14,419 nt of DNA, from contig SDNY01000095.1 in assembly GCA_004524535.1 (NCBI GenBank), forward strand, positions 1 through 14,419. Reading direction: 5' to 3'. The position numbers and the translations under genes were made by a program. The notes under the pieces are model-generated. The model searched no databases and was not told the DNA's origin. It saw nothing but the letters and a program-made list of their open reading frames with translations. Within the stretch, counting starts at the first letter, position 1, and every line of letters begins with the position of its first letter. The DNA is from Promethearchaeota archaeon. GTDB lineage: Archaea; Asgardarchaeota; Lokiarchaeia; Sigyniarchaeales; SOKP01. Below, piece after piece: positions 4,453 to 12,568 of this stretch.

Positions 4453-4914
4453 TCATGAAAATTGTAACCACTCGTCAAGAAGAATCCAATTTTTCAACGT
4501 CGCAGGTTTTACTTTTACTATATTACCACTAACTTTAATATATCCATGGGGGCTTGGTTCGCCTTTTTCTACTTTTCTTAAGTAATAAAAAATTAATATA
4601 ATACCAGCCACACCTATGCAAAAGGTTATCAAAGCTGGAAGGGCACCAATAGATGCTGCGGAAAATAGTGCAAAAATTACAATAACAGGAGAAAAAGCTA
4701 AGATGCAGCATATTATATCCTCTTTTGAAGAATTATAAAGTCTTTTCTCTTCATAATCCTTAAACTGTTTATGACATCCTGTACATACAGGTAATGTAAT
4801 ATATCTAGTTTGAGAAAGGTTAGTATGACGAAACCATCGAAATTTAATTTGTACATCCATATGATTATACATTTCTGTAGCATAATTAAGTCCACATTTG
4901 ATACATTTAACCAT
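4453..4914 (-). CDS. Hypothetical membrane protein with CxxC..CxxC Zn-finger-like N-terminus and two TM helices
   Basis: CIKC and CTGC pairs plus a long hydrophobic hairpin (IICCILAFSPVIVIFALFSAASIGALPALITFCIGVAGIILIFYYL). Ends in TGA used as an ordinary stop. Confidence 0.7.
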   Translation of the reverse strand: MVKCIKCGLNYATEMYNHMDVQIKFRWFRHTNLSQTRYITLPVCTGCHKQFKDYEEKRLYNSSKEDIICCILAFSPVIVIFALFSAASIGALPALITFCIGVAGIILIFYYLRKVEKGEPSPHGYIKVSGNIVKVKPATLKNWILLDEWLQFS

Positions 4915-8321: not shown

Positions 8322-8491
8322 TTTAAATTACTTAAAAATTCTTATTATTTCCTTATGCTGGGTATAAAAAATTTTTATTTAATATCTCTATGTCACAATT
8401 TATTAATATTTAATTATAATTCTAAGAAATTTTTTAATATCTGCATTTCACGGGAATCTTTTTTGATGAATTCAGTTTAAGAGAAATATTA

Positions 8492-8518
8492 CTTCTTTTT
8501 TGTTAGACAAAAAAGAAG
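8492..8518. repeat. Perfect 12-bp inverted repeat (hairpin or operator)
   Basis: CTTCTTTTTTGT-TAG-ACAAAAAAGAAG in the spacer between the fdhB-like gene and the dehydratase gene. Confidence 0.6.
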
Positions 8519-8646
8519 GAGTTTGAAATGCCAAATAAAAAAATAAAAATAGAGAATCAGATATACTCAGAATCTTAATGAGATATAATAGATATAATTA
8601 CTTCTACTTTCAAATCCGTAAAAAATGAAAAGAAAATAATAAAATA

Positions 8647-9786
8647 TTAAACTTTTTCTAACTCCATTTCTTGAATTGCTTTACCCGACCTAAATGGTGT
8701 GTCATCAATAGACTCTCCAGGGCAATAACCAAATTTTTCGTTAAAGGCTTCGTTTAGTGACATAAAATACAGAGATAAGGGTAAATTCTGCGGACAGTTA
8801 TTATAACAATTACCACATTCTACACAGCGGTCCGCAACGTGCGCTATTCTAGTTAATTGATAAGTTTCTTTATTTATGGTTTTTTCTTTTCTCTTTTTCG
8901 AGAGAATGCAATCTACGCAGTAGCATACTGGACATCCTCTAATACACATGCCACACATGGTACATTGCAAAAGCCTTTCTATTTTCTCCTTTTGGGGCAC
9001 ATTAGCCCATTCTTCAAGATCCTTGGCCCTTTTTGCTTTTGCTTTCTCAAGAATTTCGTTCATTTTTTCTGAATTTGCATTTTTAACATCATCTGAAAGC
9101 GGTTTCTTTTGGATTTTAGATTTTTCTAAAAGATCGTTTCCTTTATCAGAATATACTTTCAAGATTATCTCATCAGAATCAATAGGAATTCCAATATCGC
9201 TTATAGATAAATCTGCGATAACTGGAGTTTTTCTACTACATCTAAGACAATTTTCAGAAGGTTGAATCCCTGTCTCTTTAGTACTGCCGTCGTCAAACTT
9301 AAAGATAAGACCGTTATCATTGATTTTTTCCTTAATAATTTTAGTAGGATCTATATCTTTTAAATTTTTTAACTCACGACCAACATTGACAGCCATTCCT
9401 CTATCTTCAATCCCAATAATAAACAAATTATCCAAGTTAACTTGTTTGATTTTAGCGAGTTCAATTAACGCTCTTGTATCGCAAGGACGAGCTATAAGAC
9501 CAATTTTTTCAGTTAAAGCGCCACCAACTGATTTATGTAAATATTTAGCAGCGGAATCGGTTCTAGCATAGCCATATGCAATAAAGTTAGTTAGAGGAAA
9601 ATTTTTCGCTTCTTCAGGGTTATCAATCAAGTTTGGAGAAATCGTAAATCGATCAACACTGCCTGACTTTTTATCTACTCTTTCTTGAGCACTAATTATT
9701 TTATCAACTATTTTTTCTTGCAATAATGTACTCAATAACTTTGGGAAATCTTCAATTTTTATAAGATATTCTGCTATTATATCCAA
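8647..9786 (-). CDS. FdhB/FrhB-family coenzyme F420-dependent oxidoreductase beta subunit with C-terminal 2[4Fe-4S] domain
   Basis: IARPCDTRALIELAK..QVNLDNLFIIG, ENCLRC, ADLSI, CTMCGMCIRGCPVCYCVDC and DRCVECGNCYNNCP; TTG start. Confidence 0.85.
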   Translation of the reverse strand: MDIIAEYLIKIEDFPKLLSTLLQEKIVDKIISAQERVDKKSGSVDRFTISPNLIDNPEEAKNFPLTNFIAYGYARTDSAAKYLHKSVGGALTEKIGLIARPCDTRALIELAKIKQVNLDNLFIIGIEDRGMAVNVGRELKNLKDIDPTKIIKEKINDNGLIFKFDDGSTKETGIQPSENCLRCSRKTPVIADLSISDIGIPIDSDEIILKVYSDKGNDLLEKSKIQKKPLSDDVKNANSEKMNEILEKAKAKRAKDLEEWANVPQKEKIERLLQCTMCGMCIRGCPVCYCVDCILSKKRKEKTINKETYQLTRIAHVADRCVECGNCYNNCPQNLPLSLYFMSLNEAFNEKFGYCPGESIDDTPFRSGKAIQEMELEKV

Positions 9787-9885
9787 TTATTTCCAACTCT
9801 TTTTTTATTAGATTATATGATTTATCTTATCAAAATTCTTTTCCAATGACTTTTTAATTTTTTAAAAATTTTAATTTAAATTTTC

Positions 9886-9959
9886 TATGCGTTAATGGAG
9901 CAACCATTTCTTCAGCTGAGTTCTCATTTTTTTAACTCAGCATCATTAGCTAACACATA
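9886..9959 (-). promoter_or_regulatory. Eukaryote-like (Loki-type) SECIS element in the 3' UTR of mvhD
   Basis: The minus strand reads UAUGUGUUA-GCUA-AUGAU-GCUGAGUU-AAAAAAAUGAG-AACUCAGC-UGAA-GAAAUGGUUGCUCCAU-UAACGCAUA. This gives a 9-bp lower helix, an AUGA/UGA tandem G.A core, a perfect 8-bp upper helix and an A-rich apical loop, directly after a gene with in-frame TGAs. Confidence 0.88.
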
Positions 9960-10418
9960 TTATGTTTTTGCTTTTCCTTTGGCTTTTTTCTTTTCAGTTG
10001 TGCCGCCTTTAGGTCTTAAAGGGCTTGGTCCTAGATCTCTTATTTTTTTATCGAACTCAATTGCGATTTCCCTAAATTTTGAACCTTCCGCTGAACTACA
10101 GAATTCCATTCTAATTCTTTCGGGCTCTAATCCAACCGCTTTAAGAACTTCAGTTATATATTCGGTGAGTCGATAAGCAAAATAATTACCCGTCTCAAAA
10201 TCACATTCATTTGGGTATCATCCAACAATTAACACACCATCAGCGCCTCTTCCGAAGGATCTCATTACTAGATCAGAACCAACTCTTCCCGTACAAGGAA
10301 CTAAAACAGTTCTTAATGATGGGGGATACTGTGCACGAATAGTTCCCGCCATATCAGCTCCGCCATATCCTCATTTCAAACATAAAAACGATAAAATTTT
10401 AATATCATTTTCTTTCAT
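9960..10418 (-). CDS. mvhD: MvhD/VhuD [2Fe-2S] subunit, selenoprotein with two Sec (U16, U67), 152 aa
   Basis: Hand translation: MKENDIKILSFLCLKUGYGGADMAGTIRAQYPPSLRTVLVPCTGRVGSDLVMRSFGRGADGVLIVGUYPNECDFETGN...GLEPERIRMEFCSSAEGSKF...LGPSPLRPKGGTTEKKKAKGKAKT*. Both TGAs align with conserved MvhD Cys (CxxC and GC). Missing from the ORF track. Confidence 0.95.
10218..10220 (-). other. In-frame UGA = selenocysteine U67 of MvhD
   Basis: DGVLIVG-TGA-YPNEC matches the family motif DGV.v.GC....C. Confidence 0.9.
10371..10373 (-). other. In-frame UGA = selenocysteine U16 of MvhD
   Basis: FLCLK-TGA-GYGGAD matches the family motif F.C.WC.Y..AD. Confidence 0.9.
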
Positions 10419-10431
10419 TTATATCCCCTCT
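10419..10431 (-). promoter_or_regulatory. 13-nt hdrA-mvhD spacer with RBS (AGAGGGGAT)
   Basis: Purine-rich SD-like sequence between the hdrA TAA and the mvhD ATG. It is too short for a promoter or a SECIS, which implies co-transcription. Confidence 0.65.
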
Positions 10432-12393
10432 TTAATCCTCCAATACCAATAATTCATCGATATAAGCGTTATATTGAATATCTCTGTAATAAGCCAATTC
10501 TATTGCTTTGGAAGGACAAATAGCAGCACAACTTCCACATCCTCTACAACTTATGAGATCTACTATTATATTTCCTTTTTCATTTACCGAAATAGCTGTA
10601 TAGGGACATGCCTCTATACATTTATAGCATTTAGCACATCTTTCATCAGAAGGTTCAGCTCGAATTAATTCTATAGAATAATCTCCTCTTCCCATTGGTA
10701 TACTAGCTGATGATGCGGCAGCTTTTGCTTGGCTTACAGAAAGCTCAATTGATTTTTGACCTTGACACGATCCTGCTAAAAATATTCCTGGAACTTTAGT
10801 ATTAATAGGATCAAGGCGAGCGTGTCTTTCTTTTAAATAACCATCTGGAGTTTTTTCAATATTCATAACTTGAGCGATCTCATTAGTACCTTGCGAAGGC
10901 AGCGAAGCCGATGATAAGATGACCATATGGAATTCGCTGGTAATTATTGTATCAGTTCCGACAGGTTCAAATTGAACGAGTAGATTTTTCGTTAAGGGAT
11001 CTTCTTCGATTTTTCCAATCATCCCTTTAATAAATGTTATACCAGCCTCTCTAGCTCTTCTATAATATTCTTCATAAGCTTTTCCAGCACATCTCATATC
11101 AATGTAATTTACAACTATATCGGAATCTGGATATTCTGATTTTATGAGTTTTGAATTTTTAACTGATAAATTACAACATACCACACTACAATATGGATTT
11201 GTGTTTACATCTCTCGATCCTACGCAATTAATAAACAATATTTTACTAGGTCGTTTCCTATCAGAAGGTCGTTTTAAATGTCCAAAAGTTGGGCCATTTG
11301 GAGCTAAAATTCTTTCAAGCTGAATTTGAGTTATAACATTCTCATAAATTCCATACCCATAATCATCACCTTGATAAAGATCCCAACCCGTTGCAACTAT
11401 TATCGTTCCAACCTCTAATTCAACGATTTCGTCCTGCATACTGAAATCTATTGCTCCTGTATCGCAAGCATCTTTACATGCAAAACATTCTACGCAAGAA
11501 TTTCTAACTATATCAGAAACCGCAGGAACCGCCTGAGCAAAAGCTATATCAATTACTTTCCTTGCAGATAAATTTTCATCAAAATAGTTAGGTACATAAA
11601 TTGGACAAACTTCTGTGCAGGCTCCACACCCCGTACACAACTCCTCATTGACGAATCGACTTTTACGTCTTACTTTAACGTTAAAATTTCCAATATATCC
11701 ATCCACTTCTATAACTTCACTATAAGATAAAATATCAATATTAGGATGGCGTTCTGCCTCTAACATTTTTGGTCCCAATATTCATATTGAACAATCATCT
11801 GTTGGGAATGTCCTATCAAGTTGAGACATTCTTCCTCCGGTTGTAGTATTTTTTTCAATTAAATATACTTTATACCCTGCATCACCTAGATCAATAGCTG
11901 CGGATAAACCAGCAATACCCCCGCCAATTATTAATGCAACTGGCTTTACAGGTACAACTTTTATTGGAATGTCTTCTAATAATCGAGCCCTTGAAACGCT
12001 TGCCTTAATCAACTCAATTGCTTTATTATCTGCTTTATCTCTTATTTCTGGATCTTGATGTACATAACTGCAATGTTCTCTAATATTAACAAATTCTAGA
12101 TATCTCTGTGGTAGTCCTGCTTCCTTCAAAATTGCATGAAAGACAGGTTGGTGCGTTAATGGAGTGCATGCAACGACTACTATTCGATTAAATCCTTTTT
12201 CCTTGATCTGTTCTTTAATATATTCAGAACCTCCGGAGGTACACAGGTTAAGATAATCCCACGCCCAAACATTTTCTAACTTATCGATTTCTCGTACTAA
12301 TTTTGGAACGTCTAGAATACCAGCAATGTTAATTCCTCAGCGGCACACGAAAACACCAATTTTCAAATCGTCTATGGTCTGATTTTCAGACAA
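10432..12393 (-). CDS. hdrA: Heterodisulfide reductase subunit A, selenoprotein with two Sec (U19, U204), 653 aa
   Basis: One frame from TTG 12393 (MSENQTIDDLKIGVFVCRUGINIAG...) joins track ORFs 11782-12129 and 10432-11778 through two TGAs. Motifs: VVVACTP, NIREHCSYVH, FAD-binding GGGIAG, TFPTDDCSIUILGPKM, CVGSRD..YCSVVCC and four CxxCxxCxxxC. An in-frame GTG at 12402 is an alternative start. Confidence 0.95.
11782..11784 (-). other. In-frame UGA = selenocysteine U204 of HdrA
   Basis: TFPTDDCSI-TGA-ILGPKM matches the TFPT.DC..CIL.PKM motif, the known Sec site of methanococcal HdrA. Confidence 0.92.
12337..12339 (-). other. In-frame UGA = selenocysteine U19 of HdrA
   Basis: KIGVFVCR-TGA-GINIAG matches the conserved N-terminal motif IGV(Y/F)VCxCG.NI. 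Confidence 0.88.
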
Positions 12394-12540
12394 TTTTTTC
12401 ACTTTTTTTAGTTATAACCTTATATTATTATTCTAAAATTATATTGATGATTATGTAAATAGTTCTATCATTATAAAAATAATTATTATAAATAATTGCT
12501 ATTTAATTAAATTCTAATCTTAGAAGACGAGATACTTAAA

Positions 12541-12562
12541 ATAAAAAAAATAAAATAAAAAA
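12541..12562 (-). terminator. Putative oligo-U terminator after the aor-FeS gene pair
   Basis: T-rich tract (T6-A-T4-A-T8) a few nt after the TAA at 12569. Confidence 0.4.
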
Positions 12563-12568
12563 GATTAA

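Follow-up and report, generated by a model that had tools for sequence, protein, structure and literature searches.

The hdrA-mvhD pair

We analyzed a stretch of 14,419 nucleotides (nt) from a Promethearchaeota archaeon of the Asgard class Lokiarchaeia (contig SDNY01000095.1; G+C content 32%), called the window here, in which the genes hdrA and mvhD are followed by a single selenocysteine insertion sequence (SECIS) with the shape of a lokiSECIS. Each of the two genes contains two in-frame UGA codons. A sequence-only reading of the same DNA had proposed a polycistronic mRNA on which a single 3' element serves the UGA codons of both cistrons, and comparative analysis now supports this proposal. 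We estimate a probability of roughly 0.8 that the single lokiSECIS directs selenocysteine (Sec) insertion at all four UGAs across hdrA and mvhD on one mRNA. hdrA, mvhD and the gene neighbors studied all lie on the minus strand, to which the coordinates given for the locus refer.

When TGA is read as U, the minus strand holds a frame of 656 amino acids (aa) at 10432-12402 and a 152-aa frame at 9960-10418, each with two in-frame TGA codons. The hdrA gene proper (10432-12393) runs from a TTG start to a TAA stop and encodes 653 aa with Sec19 and Sec204. Its start at 12393 had been proposed from the sequence, and a 5' alignment of 18 orthologs arrives at the same TTG; the orthologs have ATG, GTG or TTG at this site (ATG in six) and a GGTGA-type Shine-Dalgarno sequence 5-7 nt upstream of it. 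The 653-aa protein resembles a solved HdrA structure (9sfi_A in the PDB) along its full length (residues 11-652 aligned, expectation value E = 8.5e-198) and has the expected FAD and 4Fe-4S domains, which Pfam identifies as FAD/NAD(P)-binding and Fer4. The mvhD gene (also vhuD, FlpD family; 9960-10418) encodes 152 aa between an ATG start and a TAA stop, with Sec16 and Sec67, and its product matches the Pfam family FlpD/MvhD (PF02662) over profile positions 1-123 of 123 (E = 1.7e-41; 141.5 bits, with a cut-off of 22.3). The 13-nt gap between the two cistrons and their TAA stops, both described in the sequence-only reading, are borne out. This spacer (10419-10431, AGAGGGGAUAUAA) includes a Shine-Dalgarno-like GAGGGG and is 4-19 nt long among the 18 orthologs.

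The two UGAs of hdrA occur at 12337-12339 (Sec19, or U22 if counted from the GTG at 12402) and at 11782-11784 (Sec204, the canonical Sec position of HdrA), and those of mvhD occur at 10371-10373 (Sec16) and 10218-10220 (Sec67). Measured to the A of the AUGA in the SECIS core (9946), the distances are 2391, 1836, 425 and 272 nt, respectively, and these values match the earlier estimates of about 2.4 kb for the farthest codon and about 270 nt for the nearest.

The lokiSECIS downstream of mvhD

The SECIS, placed 13 nt 3' of the mvhD stop codon, is composed of three helices (9886-9959). Its core (9912-9946) consists of AUGA (9946-9943), a 9-nt stem, an 11-nt A-rich loop (9933-9923, AAAAAAAUGAG) and GA (9913-9912). 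The stem is helix II (9942-9934 with 9922-9914), which has eight Watson-Crick pairs and a U.U pair adjoining the core. Below the core, helix I (the lower helix) pairs 9959-9951 with 9894-9886, and a side hairpin with a UUGCU loop pairs 9908-9904 with 9898-9894. The fold of 9959-9886 has a predicted energy of -19.9 kcal/mol (z = -2.98), and one of 200 shuffled sequences folded as well.

According to the main texts that define the lokiSECIS and the Asgard type I element, AUGA (rarely GUGA) stands 5' of the stem and GA or AA stands 3' of it (PMC4989117, PMC11227280), and the upper stem of 9 base pairs (bp) carries an 11-nt loop that starts with As. Huang et al. 2024 (PMC11227280) set wider limits in their model of the type I eSECIS-like element, with a stem of 7-15 bp that has at most two mismatches and a loop of 8-20 nt. 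The element here has AUGA directly 5' of a 9-bp upper stem, GA directly 3' of it and an 11-nt loop that begins with As. It also lies next to the end of a selenoprotein gene, solely after VhuD, and has no other match in the window. A genome-wide descriptor scan places further elements of this kind behind seven other genes, two more hdrA-mvhD or mvhD loci and selD among them, and all eight SECIS of the genome are alike in shape.

From these eight elements we built a covariance model, R1, and from 31 elements of several lineages a second model, R2. Helix II covaries in the 21 sequences matched by R1. Pairing is possible in 91.5% of its cells, compared with 57% in shuffled alignments (none of 500 as high), and double changes are found at all nine pairs.

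UGA codons and the Sec pathway

All four UGA columns (hdrA 19 and 204, mvhD 16 and 67) are TGA in 18/18 orthologs, whose proteins are 70-82% identical over their full length, and two further columns of the alignment mix TGA and Cys codons. Within this genome, the positions of Sec19 and Sec204 are Cys in all three Cys-type hdrA paralogs, those of Sec16 and Sec67 are Cys in all four Cys-type mvhD paralogs, and the other Sec-type hdrA and mvhD paralogs have TGA at these sites. In the solved HdrA, residue 204 falls opposite an X and residue 19 opposite a Cys. Both HdrA and MvhD/VhuD therefore have UGA opposite Cys or Sec of their homologs and conserved protein downstream, as is found in selenoproteins. 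UGA also serves as an ordinary stop, since TGA closes 190 of 1450 long frames genome-wide as well as the window gene at 4453-4914. These comparisons suggest, beyond chance, that the in-frame TGAs of hdrA and mvhD are real Sec codons.

The genome encodes SepSecS, EFSec/SelB (over the cut-off), PSTK/KTI12 and SelD, the last of which contains Sec and has a SECIS of its own. Several searches were made for tRNA-Sec. ARAGORN reported only 9 tRNAs without introns and 12 with introns in the assembly, none of them tRNA-Sec, and the three best matches of the RF01852 model in the assembly are ordinary tRNAs. The tRNA-Sec of a relative, used as a DNA query, found nothing in the assembly, and a tRNA-Sec over the Rfam cut-off occurs in three of the five relatives searched. 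The assembly is rated 99% complete, yet holds only these 9 tRNA genes (12 with introns) by ARAGORN. Its tRNA genes seem to be largely unassembled, intron-bearing or otherwise missed.

Position of the SECIS across hdrA loci

Our survey covered 100 hdrA loci with an in-frame TGA, taken from the matches listed. The 40 genomes from which they come belong to one order and include the present genome; 120 further matches fall outside the survey. Contig ends cut six of the 100 loci, which leaves 94 complete ones, and in 82 of these mvhD lies on the same strand at most 110 nt from hdrA and is counted as an adjacent pair. R2 places a SECIS just 3' of mvhD in 76 of the 82 pairs among these matches, a relaxed descriptor adds three more (L033, L097 and L115), and the element of L034 was found by eye only. 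Inside hdrA or mvhD of the 82 pairs there is no R2 match with E < 0.1. No pair has a SECIS behind an mvhD that lacks UGA (0/82), and every paired mvhD has at least one UGA. The nearest in-frame hdrA UGA in these pairs is 168 nt 5' of the hdrA stop.

Stop codon usage differs between the two cistrons of a pair. The hdrA stops in the 82 pairs, again among the matches listed, are TAA (70) and TAG (12) and never TGA, and the mvhD stops are TAA (35), TAG (30) and TGA (17). This difference has a Fisher p = 6e-6 (TGA stop in 0/82 hdrA and 17/82 mvhD), a value that is overstated for kin loci selected for TGA. A comparison with hdrA copies that lack a downstream mvhD had been suggested in the sequence-only reading, and there are 12 such copies among the 94 loci: L030 (G030:C209), L035, L039, L055, L059, L076, L077, L084, L086, L093, L109 and L117. 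All 12 carry a SECIS-like element of their own, at -4 to +67 nt from the hdrA stop, which was found by R2 in seven and by descriptor in five. Six of the 12 end in TGA, and in L039, L059, L077, L084 and L109 the UGA stop is itself part of the [A/G]UGA core. The contrast between paired hdrA (0/82 TGA stops) and hdrA without mvhD (6/12) has p = 1e-6 by the same test, overstated for the same reason. L030 has two elements, one 3' of hdrA and another 3' of an mvhD about 680 nt away.

The element sites and stop codons of the 94 loci thus indicate, as far as comparative sequence can tell, that the position of the SECIS tracks the end of the hdrA or hdrA-mvhD unit. They further indicate that a TGA stop on hdrA is tolerated only beside a SECIS, at a distance too short for recoding, and it occurs only where the gene's own element sits on that stop. 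The contrast between paired and mvhD-less hdrA supports sharing of the SECIS by the two cistrons.

Search for a second recoding element

The sequence-only reading had seen no SECIS-like core in the hdrA leader or in 9787-9885. In agreement, a descriptor scan that covered both strands of the entire contig returns the SECIS after mvhD as its sole site. A covariance scan for a second SECIS, also proposed earlier, was run with both models and filters off, and it found no other candidate beyond 12.4 bits. R1 scores the known element at 55.1 bits (9897-9961) and its best match elsewhere in the window at 12.4 bits (E = 1.3). R2 scores the known element at 62.2 bits, and its best match elsewhere in the window reaches 11.3 bits at 304-345, far from hdrA-mvhD; within hdrA, mvhD or the leader its best score is 9.7 bits (E = 1.2). 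A descriptor for the GAA_A-type element (eaSECIS) has no match on the sense strand from 12568 to 9700, although it is strict (0.01 matches expected by chance) and has low power. No stable local hairpin of the bacterial SECIS type follows any of the four UGAs, and the 70 nt 3' of each UGA fold no better than shuffled sequences (z = +0.43, -0.64, -0.04 and +0.01). Compared with Rfam by cmscan, the window has seven matches at E <= 10, all at chance level and none to a SECIS family.

When the 18 orthologs are aligned by codon, identity at synonymous sites does not rise around the UGAs (z = -1.2 to +0.6), with the exception of z = 2.3 at the mvhD start. One strong peak is present, in the first 10 codons of hdrA, where identity is 0.93 (z = 5.8). 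A 5-bp hairpin, GUCUG-AAAAU-CAGAC (12377-12391), begins in the hdrA start codon here. The letters of its stem are invariant in 17/18 orthologs and its loop varies in length by whole codons, and no covariation was found among the 18 orthologs. An hdrA paralog on contig C83 keeps the peptide M-S-x-x-x-Q-T and does not keep the start hairpin. The synonymous-site and folding tests together argue against a second element that is very unlike the lokiSECIS.

Transcription of the pair

The 13-nt spacer between hdrA and mvhD contains no T-run. A U5 run 18 nt 3' of the SECIS (9864-9868) is a possible archaeal terminator. We also compared the window with three metatranscriptome runs from one sediment study, in which only 5-9% of the sampled words were present. 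The contigs of these RNA libraries are 90-97% alike to it and therefore come from relatives, and the parts that they do not cover are uninformative. The hdrA/mvhD junction is spanned in two of the three runs (X1 record 4, 10272-10581; X2 record 11, 10342-10570), and the mvhD stop together with the SECIS is spanned in one run (X1 record 3, 9899-10081). These contigs are a weak hint in favor of hdrA-mvhD co-transcription. One X2 contig (90% alike) skips 263 nt, joining 12111 to 12375.

A proposed mechanism and its alternatives

If the reading of one shared element is correct, then a promoter in the 175-nt leader would drive hdrA and mvhD as a single transcript. The one lokiSECIS, 13 nt past the mvhD stop, would direct Sec-tRNA(Sec) on an archaeal/eukaryotic-type EFSec to four UGAs, two of them in the upstream cistron, at distances of 272 to 2391 nt, and a factor would bind its kink-turn-like core. 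The SECIS would be tolerant of distance and would also have a minimum distance, so that a far-upstream UGA would be read as Sec and a UGA at or beside the core would terminate translation.

Several observations weigh against this mechanism. The models can miss divergent shapes, as R2 recovered only one of four held-out divergent SECIS at E <= 1 (L030, 24.9 bits), and they would therefore overlook a second element of very different form. The mechanism leaves the conserved hairpin at the hdrA start unaccounted for. The survey loci are kin and were picked for a TGA in hdrA, and two of the 82 pairs (L071 and L107) have no SECIS by any method. One ortholog SECIS (L016:3929-3986, plus strand) has a UUGA core in place of AUGA with the remainder intact; this change may be tolerated, may mark an inactive copy or may be a sequencing error. 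U5 runs inside the coding regions at 10782 and 10388 might end some transcripts. The RNA contigs come from relatives and cannot prove a single molecule, and they may stem from carried-over DNA. Finally, tRNA-Sec was not found in the 198-contig assembly, which may reflect true absence or an assembly gap.

Some of these points could be accommodated if a second recoding element, different from the lokiSECIS and located in hdrA or its leader, served the hdrA UGAs and left the 3' SECIS to mvhD only. The low recovery of held-out divergent elements would allow for it, and the constrained first 10 hdrA codons, with their z of 5.8 and a hairpin in 17/18 orthologs about 40 nt 5' of the first UGA, also speak for it. 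This start hairpin, however, has no AUGA/GA core and is 5' of just one of the two UGAs, and the hdrA UGAs themselves show neither synonymous constraint (z = -1.2 to -0.1) nor a stable local fold. Nothing else scores above 12.4 bits in either model, and the genome's SECIS have the same shape in 8/8 cases. An internal element would also make the SECIS at the stop of mvhD-less hdrA (12/12) needless, and only an action of the downstream SECIS on the hdrA cistron would lead one to expect that paired hdrA has no TGA stops (0/82). We consider a second element of this kind unlikely. It is also quite unlikely that hdrA and mvhD are made on separate mRNAs, or that the reach of the SECIS stops at its own cistron, with the hdrA UGAs mostly terminating translation or being read by near-cognate tRNAs, so that Sec-HdrA would be scarce or absent. 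Such an arrangement would fit the U5 runs at 10782 and 10388, we only infer co-transcription, and cross-cistron action of a SECIS has had no experimental test in the parts of the literature examined. The 13-nt spacer is nevertheless too short for a terminator and a promoter, and the relatives' RNA contigs span the junction in 2/3 runs, weak as this evidence is. Moreover, the protein past each UGA is 70-82% identical among 17 orthologs, meaning that selection acts on the entire frame; 18/18 orthologs retain the UGAs with no reversion to Cys codons, and the rule that links stop codons to SECIS position holds.

In another reading the TGAs are not Sec codons at all but the result of misassembly, of pseudogene decay or of a changed meaning of UGA throughout the genome, and this reading has in its favor the missing tRNA-Sec. 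It is contradicted by the four TGA columns shared by 18/18 orthologs from different assemblies, by Cys at these positions in Cys-type paralogs, by the X at the canonical position of the solved HdrA, by the presence of SepSecS, EFSec, PSTK and SelD, and by the use of TGA as a stop in 190/1450 long frames and in the window gene 4453-4914. We regard it as highly improbable.

A side hairpin and a lower helix

The consensus of the orthologs suggests that the element extends beyond the lokiSECIS core to 9959-9886, with a lower helix whose 3' strand is separated from the GA by a small hairpin. We examined this region in 84 SECIS from the survey (loci L006-L119). A side hairpin of at least 5 bp begins 0-9 nt past the GA in 62 of the 84, compared with 12.9±3.4 in shuffles (maximum 23 in 200) and 16/84 in control windows 150 nt downstream. 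In a MAFFT alignment of the 3' flanks that was not fitted to structure, and in which the helix was named by hand, 92.3% of the cells of this hairpin pair, compared with 58.5% in shuffles (0/500 as high) and 29-61% in slid controls, and both sides of a pair have changed in 80 cells. A GC within its loop is conserved. The lower helix has at least six contiguous pairs in 61 of 80 SECIS, whereas shuffles give 23.1±3.9. RNAalifold found no consensus for the 84 flanks because their loop lengths differ.

The three-way arrangement brings to mind the k-junction, which Wang and colleagues reportedly described in 2014 as a kink-turn elaborated into a three-way junction. The likeness is one of architecture alone, a GA/GA-type core with a third helix beside it. 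It is conceivable, though doubtful, that the lokiSECIS is a k-junction-like three-helix junction whose extra helix may dock a SECIS-binding factor or enable its multi-UGA, cross-cistron reach. Term searches of the main texts of Mariotti 2016 and Huang 2024 and a literature search found no description of the side hairpin. Huang et al. 2024 do mention family-specific pairs in 'lower stems' (PMC11227280). A SECIS of three helices, in which a side hairpin 3' of the GA covaries, has possibly not been described before.

Flanking genes and leader

In minus-strand order, the locus begins with an aldehyde:ferredoxin oxidoreductase fragment and a 4Fe-4S protein, followed by a 175-nt A+T-rich leader, hdrA, mvhD and an FrhB/FdhB-family gene. 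Further 3' are genes that Pfam assigns to the enolase superfamily, the sulfatases and a tetratricopeptide repeat (TPR) protein. The leader (12394-12568) has a Shine-Dalgarno-like AGUGA at 12403-12399, an A+T-rich TATA-like stretch near 12479, and T6 and T8 runs (12562 and 12550) 3' of the upstream ferredoxin gene. The T-runs and the TATA-like stretch are putative terminator and promoter elements, respectively.

The gene downstream of mvhD (8647-9786) encodes 379 aa without UGA and begins 174 nt 3' of mvhD. It had been called fdhB, and its match to PF04432 upholds the FrhB/FdhB family without establishing FdhB itself. An FrhB-like gene is the same-strand 3' neighbor in 17/18 orthologs, 143-257 nt past mvhD, and may belong to one longer operon with hdrA-mvhD, in which case the SECIS would be intercistronic and not part of a 3' untranslated region (UTR). 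This conserved same-strand neighbor in 17/18 orthologs suggests an HdrA-MvhD-FrhB-like module. Between the FrhB-like and enolase-superfamily genes lie 325 nt (8322-8646) of about 17-20% G+C with no open reading frame (ORF) of at least 60 aa.

Other lokiSECIS elements in the genome

Some of the other elements of this shape follow genes that are less easily assigned. At G000:C103:8899-9373 (minus strand; L009:1900-2374), a lokiSECIS lies 8 nt past a 143-aa ORF with two adjacent UGAs (...SGUUCE...). This ORF belongs to no Pfam family, is located just 3' of an ArsM-like S-adenosylmethionine (SAM) methyltransferase gene, and may encode an undescribed selenoprotein. A second lokiSECIS on the same contig (G000:C103:7616-8382, minus strand; L009:617-1383) lies 59 nt past a DUF5714 gene without an in-frame UGA, and its stem is nearly identical to that of its neighbor 1.3 kb upstream. 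This element may serve another cistron or be a relic. Elements of lokiSECIS shape also occur past two 85-aa ORFs of no Pfam family (G000:C37:8277-8599, plus strand; G000:C36:5683-5979, minus strand). One of these ORFs has U55 in a GGGGUGC motif after a hydrophobic N-terminus, and the other has no UGA.

Relation to known Sec systems

Eukaryotic type I SECIS elements contain an AUGA_AA_GA kink-turn, reside in the 3' UTR, act at a distance and can serve several UGAs per mRNA, as in SelP. The element described here resembles them in its location 3' of the coding sequence, in its proposed action at a distance and in having several UGAs per mRNA. It differs in its shorter upper stem, in the side hairpin past the GA and in the probably polycistronic nature of the mRNA. 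It also matches no SECIS family of Rfam (E <= 10), and no SBP2 is known in Asgard archaea according to the main text of Huang 2024 (PMC11227280).

The eaSECIS of Methanococcales and Methanopyrus is likewise a 3'-UTR element with relaxed distance limits. Mariotti 2016 (PMC4989117) describes in its main text a euryarchaeal VhuD in which one such element serves two UGAs, as is proposed for mvhD here, and gives euryarchaeal hdrA its own SECIS, unlike the hdrA of this locus. Peiter and Rother 2022 (PMC9622424) tested UGA-SECIS spacings of 520-679 nt in M. maripaludis. The eaSECIS has a GAA_A bulge between two G+C-rich helices, a structure that our strict, low-power descriptor did not find. Bacterial SECIS elements share with the present one the use of an mRNA structure to recode UGA to Sec, but they are SelB-binding hairpins directly 3' of the UGA, whereas the element here is hundreds to thousands of nucleotides away.

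The closest relatives are the lokiSECIS elements of HdrA-VhuD pairs. Mariotti et al. 2016 (PMC4989117) report in their main text that Lokiarchaeota HdrA-VhuD pairs have one lokiSECIS, solely 3' of VhuD, and that the HdrA stop is always UAA or UAG and the VhuD stop may be UGA. Lokiarchaeota HdrA has several Sec, always including the canonical position near 200, and VhuD has two (main texts of PMC4989117 and PMC11227280). Huang et al. 2024 (PMC11227280) state there that the shared arrangement is confirmed for hundreds of Asgard metagenome-assembled genomes (MAGs). The present locus is alike in genes, order, short spacer, Sec sites, and the site and shape of the element, shows no essential difference from these descriptions, and is a further instance. 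A SECIS shared by hdrA and mvhD is thus already known as an inference published in 2016 and 2024. An experimental test of such sharing is not reported in the consulted parts of Mariotti 2016, Huang 2024, a 2026 review and papers on M. maripaludis and Asgard archaea, or in a literature search. To the account in these main texts, our analysis adds the 94-locus count of paired and unpaired hdrA, the synonymous-site and local-fold tests, the side hairpin and the lower helix.

Implications

The sequence-only reading held that production of the whole module would depend on selenium. At the level of the organism this is too strong, because the genome also holds Cys-type hdrA and mvhD paralogs. If a single 3' element does reprogram stops in two cistrons over 2.4 kb, it would be a mode of recoding with no experimentally tested parallel. 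The shared SECIS stands at the proposed transition from archaeal to eukaryotic Sec decoding. This significance has been in print since 2016, and the window therefore adds an instance and not a discovery. The two further conserved helices of the element belong in any reporter construct or hunt for a binding protein. If the three-helix junction is real, then it would be a part of the transition from archaeal to eukaryotic SECIS that is missing from the main texts searched.

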